A stretch of DNA of 3,480 nucleotides from Escherichia coli. Its GTDB lineage: Bacteria > Pseudomonadota > Gammaproteobacteria > Enterobacterales > Enterobacteriaceae. Below are positions 1-1,595 of this stretch, in pieces. Under the pieces are notes generated by a model that was not told where the DNA came from, ran no database searches, and saw nothing but the letters and a program-made list of their open reading frames with translations. The position numbers and the translations under genes are program-made. The stretch is taken from NCBI RefSeq assembly GCF_003334255.1, contig NZ_QOWU01000120.1. One strand, written 5' to 3'. Position 1 is the first letter of the stretch, and every line of letters begins with the position of its first letter.

Positions 1-77
1 ACCGAGAAAGACACTGAAGTTCAAAACACCGAAAGAGATAATTGAAAGGGGTGTTGCATTGACAGATTGAATCTACA
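1..77 (+). mobile_element. Right terminus of an IS30-family element (terminal inverted repeat ending at 77; element body lies left of the window)
   Basis: Minus-strand sequence from 77 leftward reads TGTAGATTCAATCTGTCAATGCAACA, which matches my recollection of the 26-bp IS30 terminal inverted repeat (TGTAGATTCAAT...CAACGCAACA type). The transposase stop codon lies 7 nt inside the end. Identification is from memory, not a database search. Confidence 0.75.
2..70 (+). CDS. insI: IS30-family transposase, C-terminal 22 codons only (5' part outside window)
   Basis: Frame 2 translates [22 protein letters not shown] then TGA at 68-70. The RPRKxL...TPxE motif is typical of IS30-family transposase C-termini. 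Not in the supplied ORF track because it is open at the window edge. Confidence 0.7.
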
Positions 78-349
78 GTAGCCTTTTTTAATATCGTATT
101 TTGTTCCTCCAGACGGCGAACTTGCTTTTCCAGCTCGCGGATACGTTGCTGGTCTGGAGTAATGGGTGTGGCAGAGGGCGTAATACCCTGGCGCTCTCGC
201 CTGAGCTGGCGTACCCAGCTCTCAAGCGTGGTTGAACCGACATTCATCGCTTCACTGGCCTGTCGATATGAGTAGCCCTTATCAACAATCAGCTGTGCAC
301 ATTCCAGCCTGAACTCAGGGGTGAAGGTTCGTTTGGTTTTCTTGTTCAT
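78..349 (-). CDS. IS3-family transposase OrfA (HTH/leucine-zipper subunit), interrupted near its 3' end by IS30; orfB absent
   Basis: Reverse-complement translation from ATG at 349: [91 protein letters not shown]. This has the same architecture as IS911 OrfA (HTH, then leucine zipper, then ILKKA). The frame then runs on into IS30 sequence. Confidence 0.8.
83..89 (-). other. A AAA AAG slippery heptamer (programmed -1 ribosomal frameshift site of IS3-family orfA/orfB)
   Basis: Minus strand reads TTA AAA AAG in the orfA zero frame (plus strand 83-89 is CTTTTTT). This is the canonical IS3/IS911 frameshift motif. In the -1 frame a stop follows within about 20 codons, consistent with loss of orfB. 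Confidence 0.6.
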
Positions 350-421
350 TAAGTCACCTGTTTTGTGTTGTGGTGAGAATATCACCTTTCATCAGGTGGC
401 CAAATTTAGTGTGCCACTACA

Positions 422-1595
422 CTTCCCCGTTTTGCCGATATTTTTCAGCAGGGTAACCGCTGGCTTAACTGGCTGGAGAAACAGCCGGAAGGTTCAGTGC
501 GTCCGGTGGTGACTGAGTCAGTGACAAAAATCATGGCATGCGGGACCAGGCTGATGGGCTACACGCAATGGTGCTGTTCGTCACCGGACTGTTGCCACAC
601 CAAAAAGGTCTGCTTCCGGTGTAAAAGCCGCTCCTGTCCGCACTGCGGAGTGAAGGCCGGCACACAGTGGATACAGTATCTGCTGAGTCTGGTCCCCGAC
701 TGCCCGTGGCAGCATATTGTGTTCACGCTTCCGTGCCAGTACTGGCCCCTGGTGTTCCACAACAGGTGGTTACTGGCAGAGATGAGCCGCATTGCTGCGG
801 ATGTGATACTGGAAATCTGCCGCCAGGCAGATGTGGAGCCGGGGATATTCACGGTAATCCACACATGGGGACGAGACCAGCAGTGGCATCCGCACATTCA
901 CCTGTCGACAACAGCCGGAGGCGTGACGTCAGGTCACTCCTGGAAAAACCTTCATTTTTACGCCCGTAAGGTGATGAGCATGTGGCGTTACCGGATAACG
1001 CGGCTACTGTCCCGGAAATACCCGGAGCAGGTAATACCGGATGAACTGGCAGTGGAAGGAAACAGCAAACGGGACTGGAATCGCTTCCTGGACAGTCATT
1101 ACCGGCGGGGCTGGAATGTCAACGTATCCAGGGTGATGGATAACGCCACACATGTGTCAGTGTACTCTGGCTCTTACCTGAAAAAGCCGCCGGTGCCGAT
1201 GAGCCGTCTGGAGCACTATGCAGGTCAGGATGAAATTGGTCTGCGTTACAACAGCCACCGGACAAAACGGGAAGAATACCTGGTGATGAGTGGCGATGAG
1301 TTCATGGAAAGGTTCTCCTGGCATGTAGCACCGTATGGTGAGGTACTACGGTTTCCTGAGTCCGGTGAAGCGCCGGTTACTGGAAGAGGTGGTGTACGCC
1401 ATAACGGAGACAGTGAGAAAAACAGCGATACAAATCAGGTGGAGAGGGATGTATCAGAGGTTACTGAAGGTTGACCCGCTGAAGTACATTCTGTGCGGAA
1501 GTCAGATGCGTTTTACGGGGCTGAAGCGGGGTTACCGACTGGCAGAGCTGGTCCTGATACATGAGCGACTGGCACGACAGCAGGTGTGCGGCTGA
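422..1595 (+). pseudogene. tnpA: IS91-family transposase (zinc-binding N-terminal domain plus HUH/YxxxY rolling-circle domain), missing its first codons and frameshifted near 1343-1346
   Basis: Frame 2 (track ORF 497..1474, open back to 410) has a Cys/His cluster (CCSSPDCCH...CFRCKSRSCPHCG), an HUH motif (WHPHIHL, 887-901) and YSGSYLKKPP (Y-x-x-x-Y, about 1163-1177). The expected continuation MVRYYGFLSPVKRRLLEEV... is in a different frame (track ORF 1335..1595). The frame-2 tail after 1346 looks like junk. Confidence 0.75.

Follow-up and report, generated by a model that had tools for sequence, protein, structure and literature searches.

Nested IS30, IS3-family and IS91-type sequences beside a truncated mcbF of Escherichia coli, read as a series of ordinary transpositions

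Escherichia coli K-12 holds two insertion sequences (ISs) of the IS3 family, IS911A (insN/insI1) and IS911B (insO/insI3), that are each split by a complete IS30 (IS30A and IS30D, respectively) at ...TTAAAAAAGGCT[AC]CGCGCTCTT..., just past the frameshift heptamer and with a 2-bp duplication. The interruption of K-12 IS911 by IS30A has been described, as has the preference of IS30 for near-palindromic hot spots, at which it duplicates 2 bp (PMC9333248). IS91 (X17114) comprises terIS with top-strand CGAG, a 121-aa orf121 overlapping the ATG of tnpA, a transposase with a Zn finger and Y2/HUH features, and oriIS followed by CAAG, an arrangement shared throughout by the IS91-type element described below. 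The overlap of the orf121 TGA with the tnpA ATG is a conserved feature, promoters lie in terIS (P_orf121) and, weakly, inside orf121 (P_tnpA), and 5'-GTTC/5'-CTTG targets are preferred (PMC13181058). Here, we report the sequence comparison of a 3,480-nt stretch of E. coli DNA, called the window, in which pieces of IS30, of an IS3-family element resembling ISEc31 and of an IS91-type element lie next to one another beside a truncated mcbF; the claim under study concerns bases 1-430.

In this part of the window, the right end of IS30 (1-77) adjoins a minus-strand fragment of the IS3-family element (78-421), which in turn adjoins an IS91-type tnpA that lacks a start codon (422 onward). An earlier reading of the sequence alone (the original prediction) had named these three nested layers and their families, and exact matches to known elements now place IS30, IS3-family and IS91-type sequences at the same positions; with all identities resting on exact matches, chance is not an issue. 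Bases 1-430 very probably record three successive, ordinary transpositions on an E. coli large-plasmid backbone with a decayed microcin B17 region. First, an IS91-type rolling-circle element (terIS, orf121, tnpA and oriIS; ~1.82 kb) would have become joined by its oriIS end to mcbF at CAAG, its tnpA later gaining an 11-bp deletion. Second, a 1258-bp ISEc31-like IS3-family element would have entered tnpA 7 nt in, 3 nt beyond the overlap of the orf121 stop and tnpA start (TGATG), with duplication of CTTC and no loss of DNA, parting tnpA from its ATG, its ribosome-binding site and both published promoters. Third, IS30 would have entered the IS3 copy 3 nt past the A_AAA_AAG heptamer, duplicating 2 bp and parting orfA from orfB; the OrfAB transposase could then no longer be made, and a tail-altered OrfA open reading frame (ORF) would stay. 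IS30 probably struck at this position because TTAAAAAAGGCT[AC]CGCGCTCTTAAT is a preferred IS30 target. The structure as a whole is an ordinary nesting of already known ISs.

The second step is documented by sister plasmids with empty and occupied sites. Four empty-site plasmids (pSTEC17_183-b, ED1a, DETEC-S792 and S1-CAM-02-A) match 422-3480 at 99.8-99.9%, and none of these BLAST matches extends to the left of 422. At the only empty site inspected, that of pSTEC17_183-b (L002), orf121 continues directly into ATGCTTCCCC: the junction reads ...CCCGTCTGATGCTTCCCCGTTTTGCC..., the TGA of the 121-aa ORF overlaps an ATG, and tnpA starts ATG CTT CCC CGT.... The product of an intact relative, WP_000937612.1, indeed begins in this way. 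Two occupied-site plasmids, G6/7 and G8, match 78-3480 and carry an intact IS3 copy at the same site, its position having been checked in G6/7. The latter (L001) differs from the window by one mismatch in 3403 nt and carries the window alleles at all four positions where pSTEC17_183-b differs. Relative to the empty site, ...cTGATGCTTCCCCG..., the occupied one reads ...TGATGCTTC[IS3]CTTCCCCG..., or, with the ends of the complete 1258-bp element of G6/7, at L001 5087-6344, written out, ...TGATGCTTC[TGTAGTGG...CCACTACA]CTTCCCCG.... The terIS end, orf121 and the ATG are intact on the far side of IS3 in G6/7, and the right-hand part lacks only the ATG codon. Because G6/7 has CTTC on both sides of the element and an intact far side, the insertion of IS3 was a simple one that duplicated 4 bp (CTTC), deleted nothing and displaced the 5' part. 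The left-hand remnant would read ATG CTT CTG TAG after such an insertion.

The same comparison of occupied (L001) and empty (L002) sites sets the boundary in the window itself. The tip of the left inverted repeat of IS3 (minus-strand TGTAGTGGCACAC...) lies at 421 and the tnpA frame runs from 422 without a start codon, as originally predicted; the insertion, at nt 4-7 of tnpA, is likewise where that reading had put it, at or just inside the start of the gene. The frame is in fact open from 410, the in-frame TAG at 407-409 lying in the IS3 repeat, and it contains no ATG, GTG or TTG before a GTG at 497. The gene orf121 had been outside the original account; IS3 landed just past its overlap with tnpA.

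The order IS91, IS3, IS30, proposed earlier from the nesting, is supported because each stage is found among the sister plasmids: an intact mcb operon, IS91 without IS3, IS91 with intact IS3 and, in the window, the same arrangement with IS30 added. A further set of plasmid matches over 78-1786 (H7-H14) was considered as the same IS3/IS91 junction and rejected, as the one inspected, H8 (L008), is a separate insertion event. In this enterotoxigenic E. coli plasmid, positions 3376-4633 hold the IS3 element, identical at all 1258 bp, within an IS91 copy independent of the one in the window; the insertion lies elsewhere in tnpA (window-equivalent ~1294-1296) and has an AGA duplication.

For the third step, the terminus of IS30 (...ATTGAATCTACA) has its last base at 77. 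Bases 2-70 encode the C terminus of the IS30 transposase (the final 22 codons and the stop), identical to full copies, and the IS30 terminal inverted repeat, TGTAGATTCAAT..., was recognized within 1-77 by identity to the right end of 1221-bp copies; the left and right repeats were also compared with each other. The transposase of a full copy scored 276.3 bits against NF033563 (cutoff, 80), placing it among IS30-family DDE transposases, and K-12 IS30A differs at 3 of 1221 positions from the copy in L003, one of three other E. coli replicons with the same junction (L003-L005). Five bases (78-82) separate the heptamer from the IS30 tip, so that the predicted spacing of 6 nt was right to within one base. 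The intact IS3 sequence at the site is ...GCGCGGT/GTAGCC...; a 2-bp duplication was seen in L003-L005, in L019 and in K-12, and the window, with the other IS30 end off its edge, shows a single GT copy. Short target duplications, which the original prediction had suggested looking for, were thus found in relatives for both insertions: CTTC for IS3 in G6/7 and GT for IS30 in L003, L004, L005 and L019.

Junctions of this kind recur widely. Bases 1-200 span the junction; a search with them gave matches of 100% identity in 97 plasmids of PLSDB and, among complete E. coli records, in 186 (chromosomes and plasmids alike, from 182 genomes). The three such records examined (L003-L005) carry a complete 1221-bp IS30, the GT duplication and, beyond it, the orfB part (IS3 positions 1-916), each in an unrelated context. 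The opposite-orientation junction at the same dinucleotide, built in silico, was found at 100% in 105 records; the one inspected (L019) again has a 1221-bp IS30 with a GT duplication. Around position 1877 of L019 (IS3 position ~912), the IS3 sequence beside the duplication lacks 2 bp of a CGCG run (AAGAGCGGT versus AAGAGCGCGGT). K-12 provides further cases. IS911A is interrupted by IS30A at the homologous dinucleotide, between ...ATATTAAAAAAGGCTAC and ACCGCGCTCTTGATG...; IS911B is interrupted there too, by an oppositely oriented IS30D, and the IS600 fragment that borders IS30D on its other side is cut at the IS600 version of the site, ...ATATTAAAAAAAGCAAC. At K-12 4507125-4509009 (L020 2626-4510), IS30D accordingly stands between IS911B and the inverted IS600 fragment, each cut at its own frameshift-site motif; such flanks mark a recombination event between two copies of IS30, each previously inserted in an IS3-family element. 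The IS30 in the window is convergent with orfA, as in IS911B and unlike IS911A, and its host differs from IS911 in being another IS3-family member, with DNA visibly diverged outside the conserved frameshift region.

In all, this position has been hit at least five times, across three or four different members of the IS3 family. Because both orientations occur and because IS911 and IS600 were hit at the same dinucleotide, a preferred target is indicated rather than the spread of a single composite. K-12 IS30C in ydbA and the lambda LHS site have an A-run/GG(C) left half in common with these sites; the lambda LHS hot-spot region, compared by eye, shows an A-run, GG(C), 2-3 nt and then the duplication, a similarity that is only suggestive. 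The original prediction had marked the locus as an IS insertion hotspot. The data are better explained by a sequence-specific IS30 target within the IS3 element, and the term would then belong to IS30 and the motif, not to the locus. A broader proposition can be put forward only tentatively: the conserved frameshift window (TTAAAAAAGGCT/AC/CGCGCTCTT) of IS911/ISEc31/IS600-type elements may be a natural, sequence-specific IS30 hot spot, at which the transposase is recurrently and precisely knocked out and a tail-altered OrfA regulator spared. Roughly compared by record counts, such a junction is borne by 291 complete E. coli records and the intact site, at ≥99% identity, by ~950. If true, this might amount to antagonism between elements, with consequences for IS3-family activity that go beyond a mere IS30 target preference. 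If anything here could interest IS specialists, it is the recurrence of IS30 insertions at the frameshift sites of several IS3-family elements.

Several points weigh against reading bases 1-430 as three simple insertions. The window starts within IS30, whose far side is outside it. A whole-window BLAST of complete E. coli genomes and PLSDB plasmids returned no record with both junctions, and an exact two-anchor pattern across both junctions had no match in species-representative genome contigs or metagenome contigs. The contigs retrieved by exact-protein look-up of the 325-aa tnpA product are all shorter than 2 kb; they contain the IS3/IS91 junction and end before IS30. IS30 generates deletions, inversions and cointegrates (PMC9333248), so the left side could be rearranged in this replicon. 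Finally, the fit of the target site to an IS30 consensus was judged on five natural IS30 sites aligned by eye. What is directly visible comprises the boundaries, the intermediate stages and, in relatives, the duplications. As the window begins inside IS30 and its source replicon was not found, it is from relatives that we infer the other 914 bp of IS3 and 460 bp from the 5' part of IS91 to lie beyond IS30 in the window's own replicon.

Among the other routes to this structure, the acquisition of IS30 from a second IS3::IS30 copy within the cell, through homologous recombination or gene conversion, survives best, and we regard it as unlikely. The IS3 copies compared, 100% identical over 1258 bp, offer ample homology for it, and K-12 IS30D, lying between IS911 and IS600, demonstrates that recombination between IS30 copies does happen; segments of replicons might also have been fused or inverted, leaving DNA without relation to IS91 on the left of IS30. 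This route is nevertheless without direct evidence, and insertion at a hot spot suffices alone. A reversed order is somewhat less probable still. Here, a 2481-bp IS30-interrupted composite, mobilized in trans by intact copies, would have entered IS91, and the G6/7 lineage would later have lost IS30 precisely. With two events, this equals the favored scenario in number, and the composite does occur on chromosomes and plasmids in numerous unrelated contexts; in L004, it is flanked by a 3-bp TTA duplication. It requires, however, the exact restoration of IS3 in G6/7, whose copy equals other intact copies, and the independent hits at the same dinucleotide in both orientations, together with those in IS911 and IS600, show de novo IS30 insertion to be frequent at this site. 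A de novo insertion at a demonstrated hot spot is more economical than either route. Least credible is the loss of DNA envisaged in the original prediction, with the IS3 arrival bringing or causing deletion of the IS91 promoter, ter-side end and first codons and IS30 removing orfB: neither the IS91 5' part nor orfB is visible inside the window, but G6/7, so close in sequence to the window, keeps the intact IS3, the CTTC duplication, the ATG, orf121 and terIS on the other side, and orfB lies beyond a complete IS30 with a 2-bp duplication in all four interrupted copies inspected.

Table 1 Features of the window bearing on the three insertions
Feature	Position	Strand	Basis or remark
IS30 right end (right inverted repeat, IRR)	1..77	+	Same 77 bp as at the end of full-length (1221-bp) IS30 copies in L003-L005, three other replicons of E. 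coli; rest of the element beyond the left edge
GT (AC in orfA sense), single visible copy of the dinucleotide duplicated by IS30	78..79	.	GT on both sides of IS30 in L003, L004, L005 and L019
Left 344 bp of the 1258-bp ISEc31-like IS3-family element	78..421	-	100% identical to intact copies (L001, L008) and interrupted copies (L003-L005)
A_AAA_AAG programmed -1 frameshift heptamer	83..89	-	Canonical X_XXY_YYZ phase relative to the orfA ATG
Rfam isrC (RF01387), full-length match	231..353	-	150.4 bits; gathering score, 39; model positions 1-123
CTTC, right-hand copy of the IS3 target duplication	422..425	+	nt 4-7 of IS91-type tnpA (codon 2 onward)
IS91-type tnpA without ATG, frameshifted by an 11-bp deletion between 1330 and 1331	422..1595	+	NF033538; Pfam PF14319 and PF04986; alignment to WP_000937612.1
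Right (oriIS) end of the IS91-type element	1596..1783	+	Homology of three independent copies ends after ...AATTCCTATCGAT
CAAG target tetranucleotide beside the oriIS end (5'-CTTG on the other strand)	1784..1787	+	CAAG, GAAC and CAAG in three contexts
mcbF 3' two-thirds, from ~codon 55, without the Walker A region	1788..2357	+	Alignment with intact mcbF of a plasmid carrying the whole mcb operon
Candidate IS30 target	In the IS3 element, at the frameshift window		TTAAAAAAGGCTACCGCGCTCTTAAT; 30-bp form, GATATTAAAAAAGGCTACCGCGCTCTTAATGT

The IS91-type element was assigned by both its transposase and its ends. The tnpA product scored 238.2 bits against NF033538 (cutoff, 125), with profile position 2 aligning to residue 4, and PF14319 and PF04986 both match the 325-aa product, as befits an HUH/Y2 transposase with an N-terminal zinc-binding domain. 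Alignment to the intact relative WP_000937612.1 makes an 11-bp gap visible. The deleted bases, GATAAGGGGTT relative to intact IS91-like tnpA, shift the frame just before the conserved ...MVRYYGFLS region. Because the IS3-free sister plasmids carry the same deletion, tnpA was already dead when IS3 arrived, and the IS91 copy of the window is dead twice over, by the deletion and by the IS3 insertion after nt 7.

At the right end, BLAST matches to other IS91 copies stop at 1783-1788, and oriIS adjoins a 5'-GTTC/5'-CTTG-type target without target duplication, as expected of the IS91 family. Alignment of three independent copies places the left end at (T)CGAGTAGGCAGCC..., in which CGAG corresponds, on the complementary strand, to the CTCG published as the ter cleavage site. 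L001, L002, L008 and L009 all have an orf121 whose TGA overlaps the tnpA ATG by one base and a terIS that contains the CTCG cleavage site; neither is seen in the window, as insertion of IS3 and IS30 displaced both beyond its left edge. Uninterrupted in pSTEC17_183-b, at L002 5545-7362, the IS91 copy measures 1818 bp. The isoform of the window differs from IS91 itself, matching PGAP (Prokaryotic Genome Annotation Pipeline) 'IS91-like' copies at ~95%; our comparison was made to those copies, and to X17114 by description. It also differs from X17114 in its double inactivation and in its mismatched flanks.

These flanks bear on the claim that IS91 had inserted into mcbF. That its oriIS end abuts mcbF at about codon 55, at CAAG, was borne out; the left flank in the sister plasmids, in place of the rest of mcbF, is a truncated 170-aa colicin-like pore-forming gene. 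Because the colicin remnant and mcbF do not belong together, IS91 is not a simple insertion into mcbF, and the arrangement suggests one-ended transposition or a later rearrangement. One-ended transposition mobilizes DNA on the ter side. The colicin-like gene lies outside the window (L002 5065-5577; L001 4147-4659), with its annotated start codon inside the IS91 end, and neighbors a colicin E1-family immunity gene.

The IS3-family element is defined by its coding arrangement and ends. Its orfA, with an ATG at 349 on the minus strand, is cut 3 nt past the heptamer and then continues into the IS30 repeat, giving the tail-altered OrfA reading frame with its repeat-encoded tail; the window copy can no longer yield OrfAB. 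When reconstructed from an intact copy with a -1 shift, OrfAB is 392 aa long and scored 360.6 bits against NF033516, the NCBIfam IS3 model (cutoff, 160), and PGAP labels the intact copy of G6/7 'programmed frameshift'. Joining of orfA and orfB by a -1 frameshift at an A_AAA_AAG-type heptamer is typical of the IS3 family; the window holds orfA to 3 nt beyond it. The ends, TGTAGTGG...CCACTACA, are imperfect inverted repeats of the TG...CA type, and the target duplications are CTTC (4 bp, this site), TTA (3 bp, L004) and AGA (3 bp, L008). All copies compared are 100% identical across 1258 bp, and PGAP calls these copies 'IS3 family transposase' only. The closest PGAP-named element is ISEc31, at 92.6-94.5% identity across 201 bp around the frameshift site; the two share orfA, A_AAA_AAG, orfB, TG...CA ends and 3-4 bp duplications, and they differ in that PGAP extends the ISEc31 name to none of the identical copies. 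The RNA downstream of the heptamer folds no better than shuffled sequences (z = -0.45), and no Rfam pseudoknot of the apical loop-internal loop (ALIL) type was found in the IS3 element, where isrC was the only Rfam match. The match to this family, an 'Hfq binding' island small RNA (sRNA) of Salmonella, falls exactly on the 5' end of orfA in the IS3-family element. From that overlap, Rfam isrC appears to be a fragment of this IS, or a transcript of an IS remnant between envF and msgA, rather than an independent sRNA gene.

The practical weight of the locus is small: it is an IS graveyard beside a truncated microcin B17 immunity region, and the elements in 1-430 are all disabled or, in the case of IS30, ordinary. 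It serves as an example for annotation, as PGAP lists the pieces as unrelated 'transposase' pseudogenes and the IS91 tnpA seems 5'-truncated though its start is merely displaced, while comparison with sister plasmids yields a clean, dated series of insertions.

Remains of other ISs lie farther to the right. Downstream of mcbG, 2926-3183 encodes a C-terminal piece of an IS66-family transposase. A terminal repeat (TGAACCGCCCCGGGTTTCCTGGAGAG...), which we take to be of the IS629/IS1203 type, begins at 3406 and marks the segment 3406-3480; in G6/7, PGAP annotates a 5'-truncated IS629-family transposase gene from window position ~3446 onward. The 3.5-kb window thus contains pieces of five different ISs.

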